Virus record (IMG/VR): IMGVR_UViG_3300033182_000595
Coordinates: 16,763 to 80,762 of that record
Direction: 5' to 3' (one strand)
From: a virus
DNA: 64,000 bases
Positions 5,430 to 38,652 of this stretch are shown piece by piece. Made by a program: the position numbers and the translations under genes. Position 1 is the stretch's first letter; each line of letters begins with the position of its first letter. The notes below the pieces were generated by a model. The model had not been told where the DNA came from, ran no database searches, and saw only the letters and a program-made list of their open reading frames with translations.

Positions 5430-6290
5430 TCAAACTAATTGTAATTGTACATCATTATGTACAACCCTGTCATGGAATCTAATTGCTGACTCTATTCTGT
5501 TTTTACTTTTCCTTGGCAGACCATCCATGCGATCCGAGAAGTCGTAAGCGAATGAGTCCGCTGAGTAGATCCTGTCCTTGATCCGTGAGTTCTTGAGTCC
5601 TGTCTGCTTGAATCCAAAGAGGTGTATCTTTGGTCTGTTCCCGCGGAAGCTCCACTCAAGTGTATCAAGTATCTCAGCTACAACCTCTGGGTTTTTATTA
5701 CGCTTACAAGTTGAGCCAATGCCCACCCATCTAGTGTCGAGTACTGTGCCCTTAGTTGAGTGCCTGTTTAAATTGCCGAACTTCATGTCGTAATCTGTAT
5801 CAAACCTTTTACTTAGTGCATTCTCATACATCTCAAGGTGTTGCTTGTAATCCTCAACCTCCCAACCCTGGAGTACTGGCATGACCGGAACACGCAGATC
5901 GTACTTGTCAGCCGCCTCAAGTATCTGCATGTATCTCTCAACTGTTTTGCGTTGGTGAATACGGACGGAAGCACGGATACCCTTGTCCTGTAGTTGCCTA
6001 ATGACATCGGGCTCGCACATATAGTCCTGTGTTACTATGCACTGCAAGTCACCACATAACTCAAAGTACTTGGCTACCAGTACATATTCCTCGGGAGACA
6101 TAATAAAGTCCCCATAGGTTGTAATCTGCGAGAACGCACCCGAGTCCATCATCCACCTACTAACAGACAAAGGATACTTCCTCTGCCTAAGCCTACCACC
6201 CTCATTCCTAACCAATGAGTTGGCAGATATCATAACATTACGCTTCCACGCATTGTTGTGTCGGTCTGTACCTACAAAGTACTCACGCAT
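5430..6290 (-). CDS. dpdA: DpdA / tRNA-guanine transglycosylase-like deazapurine DNA base-exchange protein
   Basis: DSGAFS, QDYMCEP, PVLQGW, GIGSTC, IHLFG and SADS motifs of the TGT/DpdA fold. Confidence 0.7.
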   Translation of the reverse strand: MREYFVGTDRHNNAWKRNVMISANSLVRNEGGRLRQRKYPLSVSRWMMDSGAFSQITTYGDFIMSPEEYVLVAKYFELCGDLQCIVTQDYMCEPDVIRQLQDKGIRASVRIHQRKTVERYMQILEAADKYDLRVPVMPVLQGWEVEDYKQHLEMYENALSKRFDTDYDMKFGNLNRHSTKGTVLDTRWVGIGSTCKRNKNPEVVAEILDTLEWSFRGNRPKIHLFGFKQTGLKNSRIKDRIYSADSFAYDFSDRMDGLPRKSKNRIESAIRFHDRVVHNDVQLQLV

Positions 6291-6706: not shown

Positions 6707-7140
6707 GATGCTTGATTCCATCCGCAGTGCGGACATTCGATGTATTTGTTTTTCAATAGCTCACCAGGTGCTGGCTTGTAACCTGTTGATTTGATCTGAA
6801 TACCCGTAGCGAGTACACCTTGCCCTGTGATTGAGTGATTGCATTCAGGACAATCCATATCGTATTCCCCGATATAGCTTTCCTCCTTTTGCTCAATCCA
6901 TGTACCTCTACCAGTGAACATTGTGTGCAGAGTATCCGGAGTAAGCTCGACCATTTCTTCGGTGATCTTCCACTCGCCTACGGAGTTGCCATTGATATCT
7001 TTAAGTTTACCCGCTACCCATCCATCAAGTGGTGAGATCTTCGGGAGTAGTTGTTCTGTTAGTATGCGAGATAACTCGCCTGAGTTATGTTCGAATGCAC
7101 TATTGTCCATGCGAACCTCTAGGTTGAATGTTCGTTTCAT
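6703..7140 (-). CDS. Hypothetical protein with C-terminal CxxC...CxxC zinc ribbon
   Basis: CPEC and CPHC; N-terminal DNSAFE...DINGNSVG motif. Confidence 0.6.
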   Translation of the reverse strand: MKRTFNLEVRMDNSAFEHNSGELSRILTEQLLPKISPLDGWVAGKLKDINGNSVGEWKITEEMVELTPDTLHTMFTGRGTWIEQKEESYIGEYDMDCPECNHSITGQGVLATGIQIKSTGYKPAPGELLKNKYIECPHCGWNQAS

Positions 7141-7586
7141 TTTATTTGTAATAATTCTCTATCGCTGAATGAGTAATGCTTGCCGTGACCAATGATTACA
7201 TGATCTCGGACTGGTATCTTCAGTACATTGCCCGCTTGTACTAATTGTTTTGTTATTTGCAGATCCGCACTAGATGGCGTGGGATCTCCGCTTGGGTGGT
7301 TATGGCTCAGTATTACACCTGACGCACCTGACATAATAGCTGGTCTGAATACAATCGTGGGATTCAGTAAGCATGAGGACGCTAGTCCCGTAGACACTTT
7401 CTCCCGTGCGATTGGATAGAGCTTGGCGTTGAGCATAATTACCCACACTTGCTCTTGCATAGGGGCGTCATCGAATGCCCCCTCCATGTATTCAGCTACT
7501 CTGTTTGGCTCATCTAGCGGCCTATGTTCCATAATGCCAACCCGTTTGTATGTCTGTGTAGACTCGTATATAACCATCATCTCCAA
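7137..7586 (-). CDS. radC: RadC-like JAB/MPN metallo-domain protein
   Basis: Catalytic E (QE), HNHPSGDPTPSSAD and DHVIIG. Confidence 0.9.
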   Translation of the reverse strand: MEMMVIYESTQTYKRVGIMEHRPLDEPNRVAEYMEGAFDDAPMQEQVWVIMLNAKLYPIAREKVSTGLASSCLLNPTIVFRPAIMSGASGVILSHNHPSGDPTPSSADLQITKQLVQAGNVLKIPVRDHVIIGHGKHYSFSDRELLQIK

Positions 7587-7849
7587 ATTACTGGTAGTAT
7601 ATTGTGTTTATTAGTTGTTTTGTTATCTATGAATAATGCACCTCCATCGTTACCTTCGTCATCACTTTGCGGGATGACTACGATCTCTTCAGGAGTTTTG
7701 CCCATTCGTGGTTTCTTTAGGATCAGAGCAACAGGATTAGCGTGCCAGTCCTCGTCATCCATGTATTGGACATCGGTTATGGTGAAACCCACAAGTAACT
7801 TGCGAGCCTCACCATTCCAATAGTCCCTTATTTCTTTCTTTGTCTTCAT
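7577..7849 (-). CDS. Hypothetical protein
   Basis: DDEGNDGGALF motif; coupled ORF. Confidence 0.55.
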   Translation of the reverse strand: MKTKKEIRDYWNGEARKLLVGFTITDVQYMDDEDWHANPVALILKKPRMGKTPEEIVVIPQSDDEGNDGGALFIDNKTTNKHNILPVIWR

Positions 7850-10413
7850 AAAGTTACCTCCTCTTTGTTCGTGATAGTCAGGAAGTTCTTCTTGAGATCC
7901 TCCCACTTGCGTAACAAGTAGTCCTCGCCATCCTCTGCACCTGTGGCACTTGGATCATAGCCAGTGACATGCTGAGCAAGTAACTCATCCTCGCTCATCG
8001 TCTTGACATCACGGGGTACTCGCTTGCCGTACAGGCAGATCGTGGCGGCATCCTCCTTGTTGCCCAGCTTGTCGAACATCAACTCCTCGATGGAATTGCG
8101 ATGCAACATGACATACACATTGACATCCTCCTTGGAGGTTAGTCGATAGATACGACCAAGTGCCTGGTTGAACACACCATACGACCACTCAAGGCAACCG
8201 ATGATAAGATTCTTGCACTGCTCAAAGCTGAACGCTTGGGCACACTTGATACCCATGAGAAGCACAGGAACTTCTCCATCCTTGAACTTGGCGGCTTCCC
8301 GTGCCTTGTCCTCACGCTCACCATCAATCCTAGCGTACTTGATACCCACCTCACTCAATCGCTCAGCGATCTCGTTGGTCATACCATGACGGGCAGACAC
8401 ATGAATGATTTGTTCACCCTTGGATACATGATGGTATATCTTCTCCATACACATAAGTACCTTGGGGGTGAAGTTGGACTTGCTGTACATATTGTACTTT
8501 GAGCCGGAAGGATCACCGCAAATACCACGCAAGTATTGCATCTGCACACCATACCTGAACCTAGCATCATCCACAGGGATGTTGGCTGGATCCATGAAGT
8601 GCATGTAATTCATCCGTTGTTGCTGAGTCATTGGTACACGAATCTCGTACACATTGGACTTGGGCATATTCGGATTGCACTGAATCTTGCTGATGAATGA
8701 TACCGTTGGACGCAGTAGCTTGAGCAACTTGGCGGGCTGACTGATCGTGGGTGAAGACTTGAGATAGCTAGGACCACGACCCGTCTCCTTGTGTATCTGT
8801 TGCAAGGTATGGTCACGCTCCACGGTCATGAACTCAGTCTTGAAGTCACCGATCTCTCCAAGCTTGTAAGGCCAACGAGGGTTCAGTCTGTTGCCATGAT
8901 ACCAGTCAGGTACACACAACCAACCCATGAGAGAGAAGATGTTGAATACCATGTTAGGTATAGGAGTGGCAGACAGGGCGAACTTGTACTTGGGTTGCAA
9001 GCGTATGAAGTTACGAGTGATCTGCGAGTCAAGATTACAGATGAGATGTGCCTCATCGAGGATGACCATATCCCAGAACTTGTGACCGATCTCGGTAGCC
9101 AAACATGGTGTGTCGATACACTTGATCGCATGCTTGTCACCAGTTGGCTCACCCAGGTTGTGAGTATGAACCTCACCATCAACTATGCTGTAAGTAGCAT
9201 TGGTGGTGTCATACAGATCATAGGTGCGGGTAGTACCAAGACCGAAGTGGTAGTTGATAACATCCCGATTGCCCCACTCGTCATGTAAGGGAGGTACGCG
9301 AAACTTACGCTTCTTGAGATCCTTGCGATACAACTCCTCGGTGTCCTTCTTGGCTGAGTACCATGTGCTAGGCAACTGCTCTGTCCCACTACGGAACATC
9401 ACATGGTCATAGGTAAGGAATACACCATGAGGTAACTCACCACCATGTAGCTTGATTAAGGCATCATAGTCCTTGCGTGAGAATAGCTTGTACACAGGAA
9501 CATCTGGTGCAAACTTAGCGAACTCCGATGTCCATTGTGATGGCTTAGTGACCTCACCACCTTTGCCTTGCGAGTCCTTGACCGTACCCTTTGGGGCAAC
9601 AATCAGTACACGACCCGACATCTTGAGGATGACAAGACAGATAGCAATGAGTGTCTTACCGCATCCCGTCTCGGCTGAGATGAGAGCAGACTCGGCACAT
9701 GCTGACTGAGCGACATACTTCATCTGACCAGGGAAGAACTTGAACTCACCCGCTACCTCCATGTGTTGGAGGATCTCCATAGCCATGTTGTACTCGTCCT
9801 TGCGTTCCTCCGCTAGGGTAGGGATCACAGGCTTCTCGAAGTACTCCCATATCTTGGACTCATCAATGTCCTGGTCGATAGTAGGATGGTCACGGAAGTT
9901 TACCTTCCAACCTCTGTCGTCCGTGGTGGTAAGAGCAAAGTCCTTACCCTCAAGCGACATGTCATGTATCTTGGATGATACTTCCTTGGACTCCTCATTG
10001 AAGTGCATCTTCATCTTGGTGAAGGGCTCAATGTAACCAATGGCACGGGAAGTGAACTTGTACACCTTACCCTTGGTAAGCTGTAGGTTCTCCTCGTCCA
10101 CATCTTGGACACATGTGAGTTCACGCTTCTCATCAACATAAGCGATCTTCTCATAGTCGGTTGGCTCACGAAGGGGGCGAGCTATCCGTACTGAGGATTT
10201 AAGAGCTGCATCAATCAGCTCAGTTGCTTCTGGACTAACGAGACATGTCTTGTGGCTCATTAGCTTTTGGAGGCGTTGCCGTTCGCTTAGTGCTACCACT
10301 AGCGACATCGGTGTCCTCCCACCAACCAACTGCAAGTCTACCTTGATGTCGGATGGTGCATAGTCTGGATATGCGACGAGCTTGCCGTCACGCTCCTCTA
10401 TGTCATACTGCAT
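7846..10413 (-). CDS. SNF2-family (SF2) helicase/ATPase
   Basis: ETGCGKT Walker A, LDEAH Walker B, SATP motif III, QALGRIYR motif VI. Confidence 0.88.
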   Translation of the reverse strand: MQYDIEERDGKLVAYPDYAPSDIKVDLQLVGGRTPMSLVVALSERQRLQKLMSHKTCLVSPEATELIDAALKSSVRIARPLREPTDYEKIAYVDEKRELTCVQDVDEENLQLTKGKVYKFTSRAIGYIEPFTKMKMHFNEESKEVSSKIHDMSLEGKDFALTTTDDRGWKVNFRDHPTIDQDIDESKIWEYFEKPVIPTLAEERKDEYNMAMEILQHMEVAGEFKFFPGQMKYVAQSACAESALISAETGCGKTLIAICLVILKMSGRVLIVAPKGTVKDSQGKGGEVTKPSQWTSEFAKFAPDVPVYKLFSRKDYDALIKLHGGELPHGVFLTYDHVMFRSGTEQLPSTWYSAKKDTEELYRKDLKKRKFRVPPLHDEWGNRDVINYHFGLGTTRTYDLYDTTNATYSIVDGEVHTHNLGEPTGDKHAIKCIDTPCLATEIGHKFWDMVILDEAHLICNLDSQITRNFIRLQPKYKFALSATPIPNMVFNIFSLMGWLCVPDWYHGNRLNPRWPYKLGEIGDFKTEFMTVERDHTLQQIHKETGRGPSYLKSSPTISQPAKLLKLLRPTVSFISKIQCNPNMPKSNVYEIRVPMTQQQRMNYMHFMDPANIPVDDARFRYGVQMQYLRGICGDPSGSKYNMYSKSNFTPKVLMCMEKIYHHVSKGEQIIHVSARHGMTNEIAERLSEVGIKYARIDGEREDKAREAAKFKDGEVPVLLMGIKCAQAFSFEQCKNLIIGCLEWSYGVFNQALGRIYRLTSKEDVNVYVMLHRNSIEELMFDKLGNKEDAATICLYGKRVPRDVKTMSEDELLAQHVTGYDPSATGAEDGEDYLLRKWEDLKKNFLTITNKEEVTL

Positions 10414-10570
10414 TTATCTGTATTTCAATAATTTGTGCATCTTTTAGACCTTGAGACTTAAGGTGCCGAAGTGCCCCCTCTGCCTCTGTCTTGGTGAATG
10501 TAATTGTTTCCTGTGTGTCGGAGTTGCACAAGCAGTGCCCCATGCAGGAAACCAGGTATCTAGTTATCAT
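10403..10570 (-). CDS. Small hypothetical protein (55 aa)
   Basis: Fills the ThiF-SNF2 gap and overlaps both neighbours. Confidence 0.4.
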   Translation of the reverse strand: MITRYLVSCMGHCLCNSDTQETITFTKTEAEGALRHLKSQGLKDAQIIEIQINAV

Positions 10571-11253
10571 TTTATTTTTATTGGGTTAGTGACCCCCTTA
10601 GTGAGGTCAAAGAATACGCCCTGCACTTCTAGTTTACCCCACCTCAGCAGGGACCATACGAAGTGCAAGGCATGGTTAGCTACAACACTATTAACAAAAA
10701 GGTCTTGTCTGAAAAATTGGTCTACGCAACCGGGCGACTCCTCCTCTGTTGGTTCGTCTCCATAGATTAAATCTGAATGTTCTTCATATATGTTTGGTAG
10801 ATCTCCCTTGTATTGTCCGATCAGTACTTGACCAGATGTCTGAGCATTACCGCAGTCGATCATGTATGTGCCTTCATTCTGCCACGACTTAGCTATTGCC
10901 TCACGGGACTTGACGGTATCGACACATGATATGCATAGATCCACATTGTCTCGTGATGGTGCTTTGCGTGGTACTGCCATCCAGTTGGTGCGGTAGTACA
11001 GATTGATACGCTGACACAATGTCTTAGCCTTGTTGTGACCGACATCTGATTCATAGAATGCCTGTCTGCCTACATTGCTATATGATACGATATCGGGATC
11101 GAATGCAGTAACATGGATGGGTGTCCTGTTTAGTACATGGAGTGCATGATTGATACGGGCAAGTCCGTTGAGTACATGACTACCCGTGCCTCCGCATCCG
11201 TACACTGATATCTTGTTAATCGTCTTGGTCGTGGTGTGCCCTGATCCACTCAT
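10567..11253 (-). CDS. PRTRC-system ThiF/E1-like ubiquitin-like-protein activating enzyme
   Basis: GCGGTGS, DPDIVSYSNVGRQ, NKA, CVD, DCGN..SGQVLIG and a candidate catalytic Cys in PGC...QDLFVN. Confidence 0.9.
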   Translation of the reverse strand: MSGSGHTTTKTINKISVYGCGGTGSHVLNGLARINHALHVLNRTPIHVTAFDPDIVSYSNVGRQAFYESDVGHNKAKTLCQRINLYYRTNWMAVPRKAPSRDNVDLCISCVDTVKSREAIAKSWQNEGTYMIDCGNAQTSGQVLIGQYKGDLPNIYEEHSDLIYGDEPTEEESPGCVDQFFRQDLFVNSVVANHALHFVWSLLRWGKLEVQGVFFDLTKGVTNPIKIK

Positions 11254-11863
11254 GTAGTGTTACCTCCTGTTGTTTGATCTTGTTGCGTGGGGTGGGCATG
11301 TAGTTGAACTTGCTGTTGTAGAAGCAAGCCTCCCACTCCCAATGAGCCATGACATCCAATGAGAATGCAAACTCTGGGTTGGGACGATTGACTGAGCAAT
11401 GCCCCATGACCCCGCCCCGTGGATGTACATCAATCCCACGATATGGAATCTCGTATATCTTGTGGTGCAAGTTTGGTCGCTCGTCTTTACTTGTTGAGTA
11501 GATAGCAATGTTGAGCGTGTCCTGGTTATTCTTACGCTTAACCATGAAGACGATGCCCGGATGTCGATACCATCTCTGTTGCTTGCTCTTCTGTGGATCT
11601 CGCTCACTGATTGTTATCTTCCGCTTACTTGGCGGGCTGTACCAGATCATGATTCGATCTTGATCGAACCAAAGCATTCGATTGTCATAGAATGCATAGA
11701 CCTCAGCCGTACACTCAGCGGGTAGTATCTTGTTGAATGAATCCCTGTCTACTGCCCGTGGGTTACCCCATTGGTCATCCTGTTTGTCGTACAATACTGC
11801 AACGGATTTACCGTCATCATCGTACACCATTAAGCTATGCTTAGCTTCAATTAAGTTGGTCAT
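11216..11863 (-). CDS. PRTRC-system protein B-like (prokaryotic E2 family D)
   Basis: WYSPP..R, PGIVF, RP, PY, Cys in GHC, WE..FY.S.F; lies directly upstream of ThiF. Confidence 0.7.
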   Translation of the reverse strand: MTNLIEAKHSLMVYDDDGKSVAVLYDKQDDQWGNPRAVDRDSFNKILPAECTAEVYAFYDNRMLWFDQDRIMIWYSPPSKRKITISERDPQKSKQQRWYRHPGIVFMVKRKNNQDTLNIAIYSTSKDERPNLHHKIYEIPYRGIDVHPRGGVMGHCSVNRPNPEFAFSLDVMAHWEWEACFYNSKFNYMPTPRNKIKQQEVTLHEWIRAHHDQDD

Positions 11864-12800
11864 GACTTAGATATTTTAATAGTTCGTGGAATGGTTTGAA
11901 GCTCCCGATCATTGCTTCTGCTGTATCCAACTCGTGGCATTCGGGCATACATGTGCAGTCGCTAAACTCCTGCACCTCTGCGATCATATGATCTAGTATG
12001 AACCACGATGGATCCGTTGATTGTCCCATGTCGCCTGGTCTCCTCCTGACCTCTTGCATCCTCCTGTCTGGGCCGATGGCGAAGTTAGTATTCTCACCAG
12101 TTATGCGTGCCATGCGTCTTGTAATCATGGGGGAGAACCCATACCAAGAGCATACCGCAAATGGCCAAGTGGCGATGTCATCATCCCATCGGTCAGGTCT
12201 TTCCATCTCGCATACATTCTCCTTACAAGCACGGAGTAACCATTGTATGCGTGAAGGCATATTTTTAGGCACATCCATATTCTCAGGAGTTATCCAATCA
12301 GGGTAGAGCTTCTCGTTCTTCTCAGGGTATTTATCGCCATAATCCTCACTGTTACCCCACCAGTAGTGCAGGTAGTGAGTGAAGTCCCTCTCGATATCTG
12401 CGGGAGTAAGTATCCAGAACGGAGCATTGTCCAACAGATACATGATAAGAGGACCGACCCCGTATTGATTGTGCAACATCTCGCACCTCGGACCGATGGC
12501 GAACTTACGCTCGCATTGGTATGTGTTGAGGATAGGGTAGTTCCCTCTCTGACCAGTTACATATTCGATCTGTAAACCGAATGCATTATTGCCCAATACT
12601 TGATGTAGTACATCAGTAAGGTATGGATCAACCGCTGGGTCTCTCTGTACCTTTCTTTGTATTGTGCCATCTATGCGAATGAACTGAGGCAGAGCGTCAG
12701 GTGTTTCTAAAAGAGGGGAGGCACGGAGCGAGGGGACAAGCTTCCGCTCCCTTTCAAACGCGAGACATTCTTCATCACTTGGAATGATAACCGAAACCAT
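11847..12800 (-). CDS. PRTRC-system protein F-like (positional assignment)
   Basis: 317 aa ORF between the C and B genes, the usual slot for protein F; sequence similarity is weak by eye. Confidence 0.45.
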   Translation of the reverse strand: MVSVIIPSDEECLAFERERKLVPSLRASPLLETPDALPQFIRIDGTIQRKVQRDPAVDPYLTDVLHQVLGNNAFGLQIEYVTGQRGNYPILNTYQCERKFAIGPRCEMLHNQYGVGPLIMYLLDNAPFWILTPADIERDFTHYLHYWWGNSEDYGDKYPEKNEKLYPDWITPENMDVPKNMPSRIQWLLRACKENVCEMERPDRWDDDIATWPFAVCSWYGFSPMITRRMARITGENTNFAIGPDRRMQEVRRRPGDMGQSTDPSWFILDHMIAEVQEFSDCTCMPECHELDTAEAMIGSFKPFHELLKYLSHDQLN

Positions 12801-12806
12801 TGCTCG

Positions 12807-13061
12807 CTACCCTTTAGTTCCGTAGTTCCCTTTGAGTTCGTAGGTTGCGGATGGTCCTTTGCCTTCGAGCTTCCACTCTTCTTTTTCGTTTTGATAATAT
12901 GGTCCTCCTATCTCTCCCTTGGTAAGGGATGGGTATTGTCTACTATACAGATCCATTACTTCTTCTGGTGACATGTGTCTGCCGGGATCGGGCAGGATGC
13001 GTCCACCAAACTTGAACACTCGTTCAACTTCCTTTAATCCCTTTTGCTGTGCTTCTGACAT
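12807..13061 (-). CDS. PRTRC-system protein C (prokaryotic ubiquitin-like, Prok_Ub)
   Basis: RVFKF...LPDP...SPEEV..LYS..YP.L....I.GP and C-terminal GTKG; AGGAG RBS upstream of ATG 13061. Confidence 0.85.
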   Translation of the reverse strand: MSEAQQKGLKEVERVFKFGGRILPDPGRHMSPEEVMDLYSRQYPSLTKGEIGGPYYQNEKEEWKLEGKGPSATYELKGNYGTKG

Positions 13062-13184
13062 ACTTTCTTTTCTCCTGTTTTGGTCCTTGTACTCTAACTT
13101 GTAAGCCATCATAGAAGTGGTCTAAGTGACCACCCCGCTTGACTTGTAGCATTTCGTCTTTGGTTAATTGAATCAGTATTCTCT

Positions 13185-13817
13185 TCATAAAACCTCTAGG
13201 TCATCTAAACCGAATGGATCTTCCTCCTTTGTTTCTACTGCTGTAGCGATAGCCTCAGCCTCCTCCTCTGCGGTAGGCTTCTGAGTCACACGCTCAACTG
13301 CTTTCTCTGCGGCGGTCTTAAGCTCAGCCTTGTTCTTGACTGGTGTCTTCTCCACCTTTGGTTCTTCCTTCTTCTCGCCCAAGCGATCCTCATTCTCATC
13401 GAATAGACTGGCTTGACCCTCACGCTCCTTGGCTTGCTTTGCTCGAGCTTCATCCATCTCTTGCTTCTTAGTCTTACGAGGTGCAGGCTTAGCCTTGCCA
13501 TTGGTTGAACGCTTGGTAGCTGGCTTCTTCTTTTCCTCCACACGCTTCTTGATCTCGTTCTCGATATCCTCGATTGCAGTTGTGCCTTCGATGAGGACAT
13601 TGGAGTAGTGATGTATGTCAGCAATCAGTGCCTCGTCTGAGTACTCAGATAGTGGGTAGCTCTTGAACAAGGGACGCTCCAGTACCTGTTGGTCTTTCTC
13701 ATCCAGCTTGTCATTAAGTACCTTGGGGATCACATATATGTGTAGGTTGCTGTCCTTAATCTCCGTGCGGAAATCAAGCCTGTGTGTCTTGAGTAGTGGT
13801 ATAAGTGAGTTAATCAT
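13185..13817 (-). CDS. PRTRC-system protein E-like
   Basis: N-terminal L.PLL...L.I.V.P...PL domain followed by a K/E/A/P-rich low-complexity tail; directly upstream of protein C. Confidence 0.65.
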   Translation of the reverse strand: MINSLIPLLKTHRLDFRTEIKDSNLHIYVIPKVLNDKLDEKDQQVLERPLFKSYPLSEYSDEALIADIHHYSNVLIEGTTAIEDIENEIKKRVEEKKKPATKRSTNGKAKPAPRKTKKQEMDEARAKQAKEREGQASLFDENEDRLGEKKEEPKVEKTPVKNKAELKTAAEKAVERVTQKPTAEEEAEAIATAVETKEEDPFGLDDLEVL

Positions 13818-14094
13818 CGTCTGATATCCTTTCTATGTCTTTTTCTTCTATACTATATTCGTGCGCTAGGTACTCCTTGGCTTCCTTCATGTCCTTGAGT
13901 GCTTTCCTCATGTCCTTGAAGTAGTCCTCTATCTGTTCGGGTGAGTCTGAGCATTCGATTGCTTCGCATGTGTCCTTAAACATCTCCTTGGCATCAAGGT
14001 ATTGCTTGGCATGATCGTCTACATCTCGTCTGATATCAGCCCGTGAGGGCTCGGGTGGACTGTCCCACCCTGGTGGTTGTATTGCTAGGTTCAT
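13810..14094 (-). CDS. Hypothetical protein
   Basis: Coupled ORF. Confidence 0.5.
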   Translation of the reverse strand: MNLAIQPPGWDSPPEPSRADIRRDVDDHAKQYLDAKEMFKDTCEAIECSDSPEQIEDYFKDMRKALKDMKEAKEYLAHEYSIEEKDIERISDDD

Positions 14095-15101
14095 GAAAAT
14101 CTCTTCAATATCTCTGCCTTAATCATCTCAGGTACCTTACCCAGTGCATTCTTCATGAAGTCGGTGAGCTTCTTGATCGCATCACCATGCTTACTGAGCT
14201 TAGCCTCGATCTCTGTCAGTCTCTCCTCAAGTGACTCATCGGTAGCGGGACCGACTACACCACGAGCGAGATCCTCGATTGCCTCACGCAAACGAATGAC
14301 AGGATGTGGCTCTTCCGGGTCAGATTGCCTATCCTTGGATTGATTCTGCTTCAACTCATTGATGGTATCCTTGTACTCAGAGAGCTTGTCCCTGAACTCC
14401 TCGAAGTTCTTCTGAGCTAGCTTGATTGCATTCATCAATGGAACAACAGGAGGAGTACCAACCTTCTCATTGTAGTGAACAAGTGCATCCAGTTGCCAAT
14501 GCAGGGGATTGTCACCAATGCCAACTATGCTACGCTTGATCGCTTCGATCTCTTCCTCCTCGCCAGTCTTAGTGAATGTCTGAGGACTTGCATCCAACGC
14601 AGGGGCAGTCTCTTTCTCCGTGTCAATGACCACACCTTCAACTGGTTGCTCAGCTTCTGGCTCGTCGTCCGTGATAGTCATATCCAAGTCGCCCACATCT
14701 TGATGCTCATCAATACCAGAATCAGAGCTTGGGGTAGGGGAGGATGACTTGGGCACACTGCTGACTTGATCGAACTCACCACTCTCTAGCCTGTCGATCC
14801 ATCCTTGCATGGTCTTACACTTGATGTCCTGAAAGAACTCCTGTCTCTCGGATGGCTCACGGGGTACATCAGCGGGCTTGTCCCCGTCCATTGGCCAGTG
14901 AGGATTTGGTGTACCATCATGTAGTCGTGGCTTGTTGAACTTCTCACCCCCGAGGTCAGCCACATAGTATGTGAAGGTGAGACATGAGGGATCGAGAGCC
15001 TTGATACATTGGGTATTGAATGCGGTGATTGCCGCATCTCCCCCTCGTTCCTGTGTTCTCTTCTCCTGAATTAGTTTTTGTAGTTTATTAGACAATGACA
15101 T
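14091..15101 (-). CDS. Hypothetical protein with acidic linker and coiled coil
   Basis: AGGAG RBS before the ATG at 15101. Confidence 0.55.
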   Translation of the reverse strand: MSLSNKLQKLIQEKRTQERGGDAAITAFNTQCIKALDPSCLTFTYYVADLGGEKFNKPRLHDGTPNPHWPMDGDKPADVPREPSERQEFFQDIKCKTMQGWIDRLESGEFDQVSSVPKSSSPTPSSDSGIDEHQDVGDLDMTITDDEPEAEQPVEGVVIDTEKETAPALDASPQTFTKTGEEEEIEAIKRSIVGIGDNPLHWQLDALVHYNEKVGTPPVVPLMNAIKLAQKNFEEFRDKLSEYKDTINELKQNQSKDRQSDPEEPHPVIRLREAIEDLARGVVGPATDESLEERLTEIEAKLSKHGDAIKKLTDFMKNALGKVPEMIKAEILKRFS

Positions 15102-15786
15102 TTTGCTGTCTCCTTTGTTTGATTTTGTGAATAGTGATTGCTTTTTGTACTTCCTTGAGTGTGTGCCGGATATCTCCGTTGCCATTCTTGGCACAAACAA
15201 GAGCCGCCTTGTGAGGGATCTTGCATAGTCGAACAAGCTCATTGGCTACTTCCTCCGTGGATAGAGTTTTGATCTCAAACCACATGAATCTGCTTGAGAA
15301 CTTAGGTGTTAGGTGTTCGTCTTTCTCTGACTTGGACATGGCATCCCACTCCTCCCGACGGCATGGCTTCTTGTTAGTGGTAACAATAACCAGGTAATCG
15401 GATGGTAGCTCGTCCTGTAGCCAATCATGTAGGCAGTCCTGTACATCACGATGGATGTTATCCACTTCATTGATGACAATCGCACGGCGAGTACCATGCA
15501 TGGGTAACATGTGACTACTGTAGATCATCTCATCCACAACAGACTGAGTGACCTTAGTACCCTTATGTACGAATACATTAGACTCATGGTCAGCGTACTT
15601 GTTAGCCGCGAATGTAGCTATAGTAGTCTTGCCTCTGCCCTCAGCACCATGAATTAGAAAACATCGCTCCCCCATTGGGTTACATGCTTCTTCGAGAATG
15701 CAGTCGTAGTGCTGTGCGGTTGTGTCACCGATGATTTCTTCTGGTGTGGACGGGCGCCATCTTGCCCAATTAGTATTGTTTTGCAT
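15088..15786 (-). CDS. Clamp-loader clade AAA+ ATPase (RFC/DnaX/RarA-like)
   Basis: WRP...EIIG, GAEGRGKTT, INEVD, TTN, SRF, GDIR. Confidence 0.8.
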   Translation of the reverse strand: MQNNTNWARWRPSTPEEIIGDTTAQHYDCILEEACNPMGERCFLIHGAEGRGKTTIATFAANKYADHESNVFVHKGTKVTQSVVDEMIYSSHMLPMHGTRRAIVINEVDNIHRDVQDCLHDWLQDELPSDYLVIVTTNKKPCRREEWDAMSKSEKDEHLTPKFSSRFMWFEIKTLSTEEVANELVRLCKIPHKAALVCAKNGNGDIRHTLKEVQKAITIHKIKQRRQQNVIV

Positions 15787-15956
15787 CTGTTATTTTCTTC
15801 CTCCCATTGTTCAATGAATACTTCTTTGTTTAACTCCTCATCTGATTTGTCAGGTGGGGGTAAGTCCTCGTCTGCTCGTCTCATAGCATCCTTAACCATG
15901 TGCTGAACGAATACATTAGGATCCCCAATCACCTGACTTATGTGCTTTAGCGCCAT
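15654..15956 (-). CDS. Hypothetical protein
   Basis: AGGAGG RBS; overlaps the ATPase start. Confidence 0.4.
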   Translation of the reverse strand: MALKHISQVIGDPNVFVQHMVKDAMRRADEDLPPPDKSDEELNKEVFIEQWEEENNRCKTILIGQDGARPHQKKSSVTQPHSTTTAFSKKHVTQWGSDVF

Positions 15957-16290
15957 TGAGTTCCTCCTTTAGTCGTTCGTTCTCTGCCATAAGCTGGGCA
16001 ATCTTCTCGTTGTACCTCTTTATCGTACCCTTATACATTACCTTCTGGTCAGGTCTTACCTGCTGATTATCTACCCAGTAGACAATTTCTATAAGGTTGA
16101 TGGTGAACAGGATCACATCGTTGTACCATATCTCCATAATAGCCACATCGGGGAACCACTTCCTGATTAGAGCGAGTGCCGTGTGACCATGCTTACCCGA
16201 GAATGCCTGTGACTTCTGATGGAGAACCATCTCTGTCCTGTCTATGTCGTAGAACTTAGCGTGTAGCTTATTCCGTATGCCTTGTGTCAT
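15916..16290 (-). CDS. Hypothetical protein
   Basis: Coupled ORF. Confidence 0.5.
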   Translation of the reverse strand: MTQGIRNKLHAKFYDIDRTEMVLHQKSQAFSGKHGHTALALIRKWFPDVAIMEIWYNDVILFTINLIEIVYWVDNQQVRPDQKVMYKGTIKRYNEKIAQLMAENERLKEELNGAKAHKSGDWGS

Positions 16291-16961
16291 TTGAATCTAT
16301 ATTTAACCTCCATATCCATGTTTAGTGATTGCTTGCGTTGTAGCTTGTACTGAGCTGACGCATCCTTAACGACTACGCCCTCCCATATTCCTTTGCGGTC
16401 GCTATCCATGACATCGTTCATGAGCATGATCGCACTCTCGCTTGCATACATTTCCTTGTACATGGACACGACTGCCTCAGTCGTCCTGGCAACAGGGAAT
16501 ACAAACGCAGTAAGCGGATCCTTTATCGTATGACTACGCTCGATATCGTACCACTCATGTGTTGCACATAGAGCAAAGGACTCTCGGATCGAGCAATGCG
16601 GGTAGAATTGTTCATAGAGCTGTCTGCGTTCGTGATAGTTGCGATATCGGATACCCGACTCAGTAACATCAATGATTACAAACTTACCCTTGTTCTTACC
16701 GCAGTGCATATACTCCATATCCACCCAGTCCACATACTTAATGGGAGAGAGTAGGGTGCGTATCCTAGCCTTGTCCCCATCATCCATGTAGGTGTACTTC
16801 TGGCAGTGGCGATTGTAGAACTCCTTGGTATGACAGCAGTACAATACCCTGTGACCATCGAGCTTGGGTGTAGCAATCTCGGTAGATAGTAGCTTGAAAT
16901 CCCGTGGCAACTCCCCCCCGCCCGTTGGACGAGAGGGATAACCTACTGTTGAGACCATCAT
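16287..16961 (-). CDS. ATP-dependent ligase-type nucleotidyltransferase (adenylation domain only)
   Basis: Motif I KLDGHR, III DME, IIIa FVIID, IV EGVVVK, V VKYR; ends without an OB domain. Confidence 0.7.
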   Translation of the reverse strand: MMVSTVGYPSRPTGGGELPRDFKLLSTEIATPKLDGHRVLYCCHTKEFYNRHCQKYTYMDDGDKARIRTLLSPIKYVDWVDMEYMHCGKNKGKFVIIDVTESGIRYRNYHERRQLYEQFYPHCSIRESFALCATHEWYDIERSHTIKDPLTAFVFPVARTTEAVVSMYKEMYASESAIMLMNDVMDSDRKGIWEGVVVKDASAQYKLQRKQSLNMDMEVKYRFK

Positions 16962-17680
16962 CTACCGAAAGCCATGGTCATAGGGACCAGGTCATTGAGT
17001 TTTTGATCTTGTTCTACGGTCAGCTTGGTGCCACGAGCCTCATGGAACGCTGAGTTTGGTTGATTGTATATCTTCCATGTGATGACATCGAACTTACGAT
17101 TCCCATCCGCATCGGGCGGGCATACATAGTCGTTGATCTCATCAAGGAGACTACACACAGGATCTTCCTTCTCCGTGGGAACAAGAGAGAAATCCACCGA
17201 TGCCTCGATATGTGTAGTAATATAAGCATCAACGAACTCCTGTCCGACAATCTCAACCACTTCCTCAAGGGTATTGTCATCGAACTTCCCGTATCCATCC
17301 TCCTTTACATTAACTGTAACAGTATGCTCAATGGGCACACTAATTACATCACCGATATCCAGAGCCTTACCAGTATCCACATCCTCCTGTGTAGCTTTAC
17401 GCTTAACAGTTAGATTAGCAGTGTACTTGAATTGCTTGGGTCTGTTCGCACTACGATCTTGTAGTAGGGTAGTGGAGATCTTCTTGTACAACCTCCGAGC
17501 CCGTCCAAATAGACCCTCGCCTTTCTTCTTCAGCTCTCTGCCTTGGTAGTGGCACTTAACCAGATCGTGTATATCTGTATCGCCCTGTACCGTGACACAT
17601 TGTATGCGACTTCCCGAGGATGTTTCTTCCTTGGGTTTAGTCTCTTTCTGTTGTTGTCTTCTTTGTGCTAGCTTAGACAT
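16958..17680 (-). CDS. Hypothetical protein
   Basis: 240 aa coupled ORF. Confidence 0.6.
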   Translation of the reverse strand: MSKLAQRRQQQKETKPKEETSSGSRIQCVTVQGDTDIHDLVKCHYQGRELKKKGEGLFGRARRLYKKISTTLLQDRSANRPKQFKYTANLTVKRKATQEDVDTGKALDIGDVISVPIEHTVTVNVKEDGYGKFDDNTLEEVVEIVGQEFVDAYITTHIEASVDFSLVPTEKEDPVCSLLDEINDYVCPPDADGNRKFDVITWKIYNQPNSAFHEARGTKLTVEQDQKLNDLVPMTMAFGR

Positions 17681-38216: not shown

Positions 38217-38591
38217 ATGAATACCCCCTCAACAAACCTGACAATTCTTCACGATACCCAAGAATGGAGTACAGATATTGAGGGTGAGATTGGCGAAATA
38301 AGAGTGGAGGTGGAAGGCATCGCTCAAAGTATTAAGACACTGGTTTTATGCTTGGGCGTGATCGTTACGGTCTGCCTAGTCTGTAATATCGGAATGGCTA
38401 CATGGGTTGCGACTCATGACGATGAAATCATGGAAGCCGTGGACGGTACCATCAAAAGGAACTCAGTAGTGATGGATAGAATGGCTAGATTAAATAATAT
38501 CTATGCCAAGAAACTACAGTCAATGGGACTTATATATCGTGATGGAAATTGGCAACAAATTGGCAACAACCCCGTGAATCCCAGTAAATAA
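38217..38591 (+). CDS. Single-pass membrane protein
   Basis: Hydrophobic TLVLCLGVIVTVCLVCNIGMATWV segment; possible lysogenic conversion/exclusion gene. Confidence 0.5.
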   Translation: MNTPSTNLTILHDTQEWSTDIEGEIGEIRVEVEGIAQSIKTLVLCLGVIVTVCLVCNIGMATWVATHDDEIMEAVDGTIKRNSVVMDRMARLNNIYAKKLQSMGLIYRDGNWQQIGNNPVNPSK

Positions 38592-38602
38592 GAGGATCAT
38601 GT

Positions 38603-38652
38603 CCTGACTACGGATCAGGAGGTTGGGAGTTCGACTCTCTCCGGGTGTGCCA
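38603..38652 (+). tRNA. 3' half of tRNA-Arg(ACG) (attP core; not a complete tRNA)
   Basis: Anticodon arm CCTGA-CTACGGA-TCAGG, T arm with GTTCGA, 3' CGGGTGT-G-CCA; no 5' acceptor strand or D arm upstream. Confidence 0.8.

Follow-up and report, generated by a model that had tools for sequence, protein, structure and literature searches.

A peptidase-free PRTRC-type cassette for putative ubiquitin-like protein conjugation, coupled to a SNF2-family helicase in a clade of apparently aquatic tailed phages

Background

Functional work could be found for three of the five operon types with genes for ubiquitin-like proteins (Ubls) that were predicted in 2006, namely, 6b (type II CBASS), 6c (Bil) and 6e (Bub), and conjugation has indeed been observed for the relatives Bil and CBASS (PMC10557695, PMC10097602). 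The type called 6d by Iyer, Burroughs and Aravind (2006) brings together a JAB protein, an activating enzyme (E1), a small Ubl whose last residue is a Gly, a putative enzyme that is alpha-helical and a protein resembling conjugating enzymes (E2) with a Cys and a downstream His (PMC1779556); it is the PRTRC (ParB-related, ThiF-related cassette). Our literature search turned up no functional study of PRTRC or 6d; an earlier inspection of the DNA analysed here, made without database searches (below, the sequence-only reading), had likewise stated that no demonstrated targets were known. Here we describe a cassette of this lineage at 10567-13817 of a 64,000-nucleotide (nt) stretch of phage DNA (the window, that is, the whole stretch that was analysed), which is the last 64 kb (positions 16,763 to 80,762) of the 80,762-bp IMG/VR virus record IMGVR_UViG_3300033182_000595, with a CheckV completeness of 100%.

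Carriage of PRTRC by phages is already on record, which limits the novelty of the present case. Ralstonia phage Dina (NC_055026, gp07-gp02) is annotated in RefSeq with the series E-C-F-B-A-ThiF; the cassettes of the Burkholderia gladioli prophage AB2 and of Burkholderia phage BgVeeders33 have been discussed, with their function described as unstudied (PMC13366799); and a 2026 preprint on a Phocaeicola prophage reports that protein B of its PRTRC is a mutational hotspot, which is attributed to a diversity-generating retroelement. What is new here is the obligate coupling to a SNF2 helicase, the remodelled loop of the E2-like protein, a protein F that has diverged almost beyond recognition and the architecture of PRTRC protein E, which resembles that of bacterial single-stranded DNA-binding proteins (SSBs).

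Composition of the cassette

The cassette consists of five co-oriented minus-strand open reading frames (ORFs) (Table 1), in the order E, Ubl, F, E2, E1. The E1-like protein passes the PRTRC_ThiF model TIGR03736 with 200.7 bits (cut-off 144.75, E 2e-59), and the Ubl passes both TIGR03738 (52.1, cut-off 45.95) and PF14454, Prok_Ub (56.1, cut-off 25). The E2-like protein scores 56.6 with PF14460, Prok-E2_D (cut-off 25), and 49.5 with TIGR03737, far under the equivalog cut-off of 131.45; an iterated profile of canonical B proteins matches it at 5.5e-38. No curated hidden Markov model (HMM), TIGR03741 included, matches the E-like protein; the protein in the F position has no NCBIfam or Pfam match, and none of the 29 members of its family matches TIGR03742, PRTRC_F. 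The labels 'E' and 'F' thus come from remote or transitive homology. The sequence-only reading, which had proposed a PRTRC-type cassette, is upheld for E1 and the Ubl by TIGRFAM, for E2 by Pfam and for the canonical gene order, E-C-F-B-(A)-ThiF, as found in phage Dina and about 40 bacterial loci; its E and F assignments find no curated match. Its description of five co-oriented, mostly overlapping genes, an 84-amino-acid (aa) protein ending in GTKG, an E1 with an intact GxGGxG and a candidate catalytic Cys (PGC) and an E2-like protein that has a Cys agrees with the coordinates and with the sequence, in which the E1 motifs read GCGGTGS and SPGC (C176) and the E2 Cys is C156. The coupling is tight, with a 6-nt gap between the Ubl gene and the next, followed by overlaps of 17 nt (F position/E2) and 38 nt (E2/E1).

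The residues of E1 that are invariant, both in a 5-sequence alignment that included the canonical phage cassettes and in 15 members of the phage clade described below, are GCGGTGS, D52, D54, N60, R63, Q64, K75, D112 and C176. By analogy with MoeB and ThiF, we take these to comprise the nucleotide loop, the phosphate-binding Arg/Gln and Lys, the Mg-binding Asp and the crossover-loop Cys. The E1 profile matches the adenylation domains of Uba1, Uba6 and SAE2 at about 1e-6, MoeB at 1.5e-4 and ThiF at 6e-4, so that the eukaryotic E1 adenylation domains slightly outscore MoeB and ThiF. Identity to the E1 of Dina and BgVeeders33 is 35-37%. Searches of the PDB returned no solved structure for any PRTRC member. 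More distant relatives of E1, 24-28% identical, are encoded by Vibrio phage D69 (OZ195729), Salmonella phage Arash (OQ632216) and crAss-like Bacteroides phages; the records of these large cultured phages label them hypothetical, structural or 'thiamine biosynthesis' proteins, and they may represent further Ubl-type systems in culturable phages.

The open frame of the Ubl extends to 13112 (101 aa), and AGGAG precedes an ATG at 13061, which is probably the true start and gives the 84-aa form. The Ubl homologues have 67-84 aa and all end in YGTKG, a terminus that does not vary among 19 clade members; from the clade through to phages Dina and BgVeeders33, G81, K83 and the terminal G84 are all retained without exception. 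The nearest clusters in the Atlas are those of PRTRC C (TM 0.60/0.82). An HMM search with the Ubl alignment against PDB sequences gave no match, and neither did one with the E2 alignment.

An E1 of the ThiF/MoeB superfamily and a Ubl with a C-terminal Gly would also suit a sulfur carrier, as the sequence-only reading had noted: the Ubl would be adenylated by E1 and, as a thiocarboxylate, feed a thiolation reaction, for example in nucleic-acid modification. However, no rhodanese was detected in the 80.7-kb genome, nor a rhodanese domain on E1, and the 20 neighbouring proteins scanned include no rhodanese, cysteine desulfurase or sulfur-using enzyme. Moreover, every cassette has an E2-like protein with an invariant Cys, which has no role in sulfur-carrier pathways, the Ubl ends in KG rather than GG, and the E1 profile ranks the eukaryotic domains above MoeB and ThiF. 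ThiS and MoaD end in GG. We therefore consider a sulfur carrier very unlikely.

In the E2-like protein, G154, C156 and V158 are invariant in 17 clade members, at identities down to about 25%. The motif of canonical B proteins, PYFNV..G.IC.GN...FTH, corresponds in the phage clade to PYRGIDVH..MG.C.V...FNY, with an active-site loop that is 2-3 residues longer; further on, the canonical proteins have FF.S.FTH. The canonical PYFNV...G.IC.GN has the spacing of the classical E2 signature HPN...C. An AlphaFold2 model of the E2-like protein (pLDDT 79.3) places C156 in a loop ahead of helices, and the top 15 of 48,161 chains compared with it are nearly all E2s of the UBC type, including Atg10, Atg3 and Cap2; Foldseek found nothing significant. 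The model and the sequence conservation together lend some support to an E2-like fold with a conserved thiol in this 215-aa protein.

The protein in the F position is a remote relative of F at best. Its family has only 28 representatives among 1.84 billion proteins. A profile comparison (hhalign) with about 44 canonical F proteins from bacterial loci gave a probability of 72% (E 3.4e-5) over 58 columns, which share the core AIGPR.E.L.N..G.G..L.LL...P, and control comparisons with alignments of E, C, A and ThiF gave probabilities of 0.1-0.5%. Because the label is weakly backed, by this one core and no PRTRC_F match, we name the protein F'. Its AlphaFold2 model (pLDDT 69.9) yields nothing in Foldseek at E <= 0.001, a best VIA-wide Z of 2.6 and no fold match in the PDB. 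A natural variant, assembled in another study, carries a net 12-nt deletion in F' (12330-12350).

The E-like protein is linked to PRTRC E through intermediates. BLASTP connects it to its homologue in the viral contig L007 (3e-21) and in the viral contig L006 (9e-5); the L006 protein passes TIGR03741 with 49.3 bits (cut-off 37.95), and the profile of canonical E proteins aligns to the N-terminus of the window protein. It consists of an N-terminal domain, a disordered linker rich in Lys and Glu (of 115 aa, 24 are Glu and 23 are Lys) and a C-terminal tip, acidic-hydrophobic and conserved, that reads ..DPFGLDDLEVL. Such a three-part layout, in which a long disordered linker joins a small N-terminal domain to a conserved tip, is shared by PRTRC protein E (window and loci L002-L049) with bacterial SSB. 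In the phage clade the tip reads ..DDPLGLGLGDLDL or ..DPFGLDDLEVL, and in canonical cassettes ..DDGVDLL, ..TLDLF or ..GLDVF. PRTRC E may be a docking hub or the substrate. In the natural variant mentioned above, the disordered tail of protein E has lost 12 nt in frame at two places (window 13351 and 13500).

A phage clade and its SNF2 helicase

The same module was found in 21 other contigs, 3 of them viral contigs of IMG/VR (L005, L006 and L007) and 18 from metagenomes, with an E1 60% identical to that of the window in L005 and L006. In all 21 the genes run in the order E, Ubl, F', E2, E1; JAB is absent throughout, and YGTKG is the terminus of every Ubl. Among 185,579 species genomes, a scan yielded 80 PRTRC loci, all at most 40% identical in E1, and no prophage with a member of the phage clade. 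In the E1 tree, the clade forms a separate long branch with 100% support. We take the module to be fixed in a clade of aquatic, mainly marine, tailed phages.

In each of the 16 clade loci that reach far enough, E1 is followed, sometimes past a few small ORFs, by a SNF2 helicase of the same family, which is the sole constant partner among those considered (RadC, DpdA and the helicase). The sequence-only reading had missed this helicase. No such helicase is encoded by the same-strand ORFs of the bacterial PRTRC loci (n=80), apart from one weak, 23.7-bit match upstream in L028. In the window, a small ORF overlaps E1 by 4 nt and the helicase gene by 11 nt, so that, between the Ubl and the helicase, neighbouring genes are either 6 nt apart or overlap by 4-38 nt; at the position of this small ORF, the relatives have 0-4 small, unrelated ORFs. 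The C-terminal half of the helicase resembles the DpdE, ZorD and DrmD helicases generically only, and the best PADLOC match, to DpdE (76 bits), covers the C-terminal part only. A RadC-like protein encoded downstream of the helicase, three kb from the cassette, was considered as a stand-in for the missing JAB protein and rejected: RadC is missing from the related genomes G001, G002 (78 kb, 100% complete) and G003 and therefore is not a conserved part of the module.

The helicase as obligate partner, together with a DpdA gene in the same operon, here and in G001 and G002, raises the question of whether E1 and the Ubl serve to ligate the Ubl to a non-protein acceptor, for example, a small molecule, a nucleotide or DNA, in which case F' would act as the transferase and the reaction would be tied to the helicase and to phage DNA modification. 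F' does have invariant polar, Cys and His residues, as an enzyme might, and an Atlas feature search places it nearest to DNA-hypermodification clusters (HMUDK_hel, aGPT-Pplase and ADDT, at 0.86). This score, however, is below 0.9 and comes from only 132-136 features in common, which is the chance range according to the tool notes, and Pfam scans of the 29 family members do not bear out a relationship of F' with any of these families. Furthermore, DpdA is not found in G003 and is placed elsewhere in G002, and the invariant Cys of E2 fits transfer to a protein equally well. On balance, a non-protein acceptor appears quite unlikely.

The tyrosine integrase at the end of the operon indicates that the phage is probably temperate. 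It also gives some substance to the view that the module is a prophage-encoded defence or exclusion device that, in the manner of Bil, would tag the proteins of competing phages instead of serving the phage's own infection: the bacterial Ubl systems that have been studied, Bil and type II CBASS, are anti-phage (PMC10557695, PMC10097602), and protein B is diversified in the Phocaeicola prophage. Against this stand the absence of PADLOC defence-family matches for the Ubl, E2, F' and E, the coupling of the module to replication-type genes (clamp-loader-like, ligase-like and SNF2) instead of a moron or defence-island placement, and the failure to find any clade member as a prophage in the genomes scanned. 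We regard this scenario as unlikely, if not to be dismissed lightly.

Absence of the JAB protein and the tail of the Ubl

The sequence-only reading had noted that the cassette lacks an adjacent ParB and protein A, and this holds for the genome as a whole. The model of the JAB protein A (TIGR03735) has no match in the 80.7-kb genome at E <= 10, in a setting where its control search also matched nowhere, and our own profile of 54 canonical A proteins has no match in the window. The overlap of the E2 and E1 genes leaves no room for a JAB gene between them. Neither ParB (TIGR03734) nor the ParM-like protein D (TIGR03739) has a match in the whole 80,762-bp genome, and neither was seen in the 22 clade loci within the stretches covered. 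A role as an accessory of plasmid-type partition, in line with the label 'ParB/ThiF partitioning cassette' used in the prophage literature (PMC13366799), is contradicted for the clade by this absence and is hardly tenable.

Both the presence of JAB and the Ubl tail could be scored in 58 cassettes. Where JAB is lacking, the Ubl stops at KG without exception (14/14, from the phage clade, Bacteroidota, Legionellaceae, Deinococcus, Armatimonadota, Bryobacterales and Anaerolineae); where JAB is present, the Ubl has a C-terminal extension of 60-150 aa in 38 of the 44 cassettes (raw Fisher p 4e-9, uncorrected for phylogeny). Such a pattern would follow from a scheme in which the exposed Gly reacts and JAB does the processing. 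The simplest reading is that JAB serves to uncover the Gly and is dispensable in lineages whose Ubl is ready-made. In JAB cassettes of the Burkholderiaceae type (L012, L015, L019, L025-L027, L033, L035 and L045), the extension after GTKG has 60-70 aa with a conserved motif, ..AHVCPLLDEE..F..AL..RY, a conservation that points to a C-terminal domain that can be cleaved off, and not just to a propeptide.

The loss of JAB, ParB and protein D, together with an E2-like protein without the canonical Asn and His, might also be taken to mean that the cassette is a decaying, non-functional remnant of PRTRC. The reading frames, however, are intact, the catalytic residues do not change among 15-19 members with identities of 25-60%, the same synteny recurs in contigs of many studies, and natural variants differ mostly by transitions and in-frame indels. 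Decay is thus highly improbable.

Genomic setting and integrity of the assembly

The phage identity of the window is evident from genes for a large terminase, a portal, tail and tail-fibre proteins and a DnaB-type helicase. The cassette is enclosed in a long minus-strand operon that includes, in the order of transcription, the genes from a clamp-loader-like ATPase to the tyrosine integrase at its end (Table 1); the clamp-loader-like and ligase-like neighbours upstream place it in a module for replication and repair. A single tRNA-Arg(ACG) gene (38577-38652, plus strand) separates the leftward and rightward gene blocks. The cassette DNA resembles none of 50,697 phage records, no cultured phage was matched by the terminase at 1e-10, and PHROGs contains no family for E, the Ubl, F' or E2.

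Table 1. Features of the cassette and its surroundings, in descending order of window position
Feature	Position	Strand	Length (aa)	Basis or remark
Weak ATP-dependent DNA-ligase-like protein	16287-16961	-		PF01068, E 2e-4, below cut-off; just upstream of the cassette
Clamp-loader-like AAA+ ATPase	15088-15786	-		phrog_5846, 2e-13; just upstream of the cassette
Two unassigned proteins	between the clamp-loader-like and E-like genes	-		
PRTRC-E-like protein	13185..13817	-	210	transitive homology via L007/L006
Ubl, PRTRC C / Prok_Ub	12807..13061	-	84	TIGR03738, PF14454; end ...YGTKG
F', in the PRTRC F position	11847..12800	-	317	remote F relative at best
E2-like protein, Prok-E2_D / divergent PRTRC B	11216..11863	-	215	PF14460
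E1-like adenylating enzyme, PRTRC ThiF family	10567..11253	-	228	TIGR03736
Coupling ORF	10403..10570	-	55	overlaps both E1 and helicase; sequence not conserved
SNF2-family helicase	7846..10413	-	855	Pfam SNF2-rel_dom + Helicase_C; PHROGs phrog_62
RadC-like JAB protein	7137-7586	-		PF04002, 128 bits; downstream of the helicase
Zinc-ribbon protein	in the operon, after the RadC-type gene	-		
Protein after the zinc-ribbon protein	in the operon	-	147	
DpdA (DNA 7-deazaguanine transglycosylase family)	5430-6290	-		108 bits; same operon
Tyrosine integrase	operon end, after DpdA	-		

Near-identical DNA occurs in marine, seawater and estuary metagenomes from at least 10 studies. A 9,790-bp contig of another study covers 7864-17000, reaching from the helicase gene past the cassette, and in a second study every cassette junction is spanned by overlapping contigs. 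The cassette therefore is not a mis-assembled plasmid fragment, a possibility that the sequence-only reading had kept in mind and that these independent assemblies, together with the 21 syntenic contigs, rule out. In the natural variant described above, small ORFs that flank the cassette (94-aa ORF and the region of a 124-aa ORF; 13848-14085 and 15950-16287) are swapped for unrelated sequence of similar length. Seven short contigs (151-177 nt) of a metatranscriptome run fall on the genes for the helicase, E1/E2, E2, F' and the clamp-loader-like protein, which, with DNA carry-over possible, we take as only a weak hint of expression.

Proposed function

The reading that we favour, with somewhat better than even confidence, is that the cassette is a minimal, peptidase-free module for Ubl activation and conjugation, of the PRTRC/6d lineage, that has become fixed in a clade of aquatic tailed phages and acts with a DNA-metabolism operon. 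It builds on features that can be seen directly, namely, the gene content, the protein families, the conservation of catalytic residues, the exposed Gly, the E2-like fold suggested by the model and the helicase synteny; the adenylation, thioester formation, protein conjugation, timing and target are what it predicts. The Ubl would be made in finished form, with the reactive Gly84 exposed, so that no processing step would be required. E1 would bind ATP and adenylate Gly84, the acyl group would pass to a thioester on Cys176 of E1 and/or Cys156 of E2, and the Ubl would then end up on a lysine in a single target protein or in a small number of them. The choice of target could come from the variable E2 loop after the Cys and/or from F' and E; target recognition by E2 is suggested by the mutational hotspot in protein B of the Phocaeicola prophage. 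The module would be co-transcribed and translationally coupled with the SNF2 helicase in the DNA-metabolism operon, and this coupling makes a DNA-associated protein of the phage or the host, met early in infection, the most likely target. The tagging of host defence proteins or of phage proteins early in infection, as put forward in the sequence-only reading, is a conjecture that goes further than the sequence supports. The best-supported form of this mechanism involves no deconjugase of the phage's own.

Several observations weigh against this proposal. In the literature, we found no functional or biochemical study of PRTRC or 6d on which it could lean. The only invariant Cys of the E2-like protein, C156 in MG.C.V, is shifted downstream by two alignment columns relative to the canonical Cys; in the clade, Gly or Ser takes the place of the canonical Asn, and Tyr or Gln (FNY/FNQ) that of the downstream His of 6d (FTH), so the 6d active-site pattern of a Cys with an absolutely conserved downstream His is not found in the clade E2. 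Given this departure of the loop from the canonical form, the active-site chemistry of E2 may be modified. The structural matches of the E2 model reach Z values of only 4.9-4.1, with 97-110 residues aligned at a root mean square deviation of 3.5-4.2, and the beta-grasp fold of the Ubl is predicted only from its Prok_Ub membership and the Atlas match to PRTRC C. Finally, the association of JAB with the Ubl extension amounts to about 3 independent phylogenetic contrasts, none in the opposite direction, with a sign-test p of 0.25-0.5.

Conceivably, the Ubl machinery and the SNF2 helicase constitute a single device that marks DNA-bound material of the phage or the host. The helicase would bring the E2~Ubl thioester to DNA, and F', as a transferase with a new fold, would put the Ubl on a DNA-associated protein, for example, the SSB-like PRTRC-E hub, or on nucleic acid, thereby protecting the incoming genome or disabling a host defence that targets DNA. 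We offer this as a speculation with a low probability.

Whatever its precise role, the clade is a compact natural version of 6d, with five small proteins and one helicase, no peptidase or ParB and a ready-made Ubl, carried by a virus. In such a compact, virus-borne module, the questions of what PRTRC tags, and for whom, become approachable by simple co-expression, and the strict link to SNF2 narrows the search to DNA transactions. The remodelled loop of the E2-like protein is, in addition, a natural experiment on catalytic-site variation in this E2 family.

Comparison with known systems

The cassettes of Dina and BgVeeders33 are like that of the window in the order E-C-F-B-ThiF, the Ubl core with G-x-K-G, the E2 family and carriage by a phage. 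They differ in that a gene for the JAB protein A separates B from ThiF and the Ubl is extended at its C-terminus by about 62 aa, whereas the window has no JAB and a finished Ubl; in an F that is recognised by the NCBI model, whereas F' is related only at the hhalign level given above; and in the flanks shown, where no SNF2 helicase is annotated.

The JAB-less five-gene PRTRC variants of Bacteroidota, Legionellaceae and Chloroflexota, such as the Dysgonomonas hofstadii, Prevotella sp. and Anaerolineaceae loci L028, L057 and L068, have the same architecture as the phage cassette, with E, C, a protein of 300-390 aa and B abutting ThiF, and with a Ubl that ends in KG. Nevertheless, they fall into other clades of the E1 tree, retain the canonical Cys column in E2, encode an E that passes TIGR03741 and have no SNF2 helicase of the phage type.

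Bil (BilABCD, 6c) likewise combines a Ubl, an E2 and an E1 with no E3, and its E2 has been proposed to pick targets by a variable loop adjacent to the Cys (PMC10557695). Bil is a host-encoded defence system, however, with a JAB deubiquitinase and a large IAD-AAD-CYS E1, in contrast to the single adenylation domain of 228 aa in the phage E1, and PADLOC has no match to the window cassette beyond the generic Rossmann part of E1. Type II CBASS, with Cap2 and Cap3 (6b), and Bub (6e) use E1/E2 chemistry in mobile elements, as the window cassette is predicted to do, and the phage E1 gives weak matches to CBASS E1-E2 models. In Cap2, E1 and E2 are fused and the 'Ubl' is a cGAS-like enzyme; Bub, for its part, forms Ser/Tyr oxyesters without a catalytic Cys (PMC11601596), whereas in the window cassette the Cys of E1 and that of E2 are both invariant.

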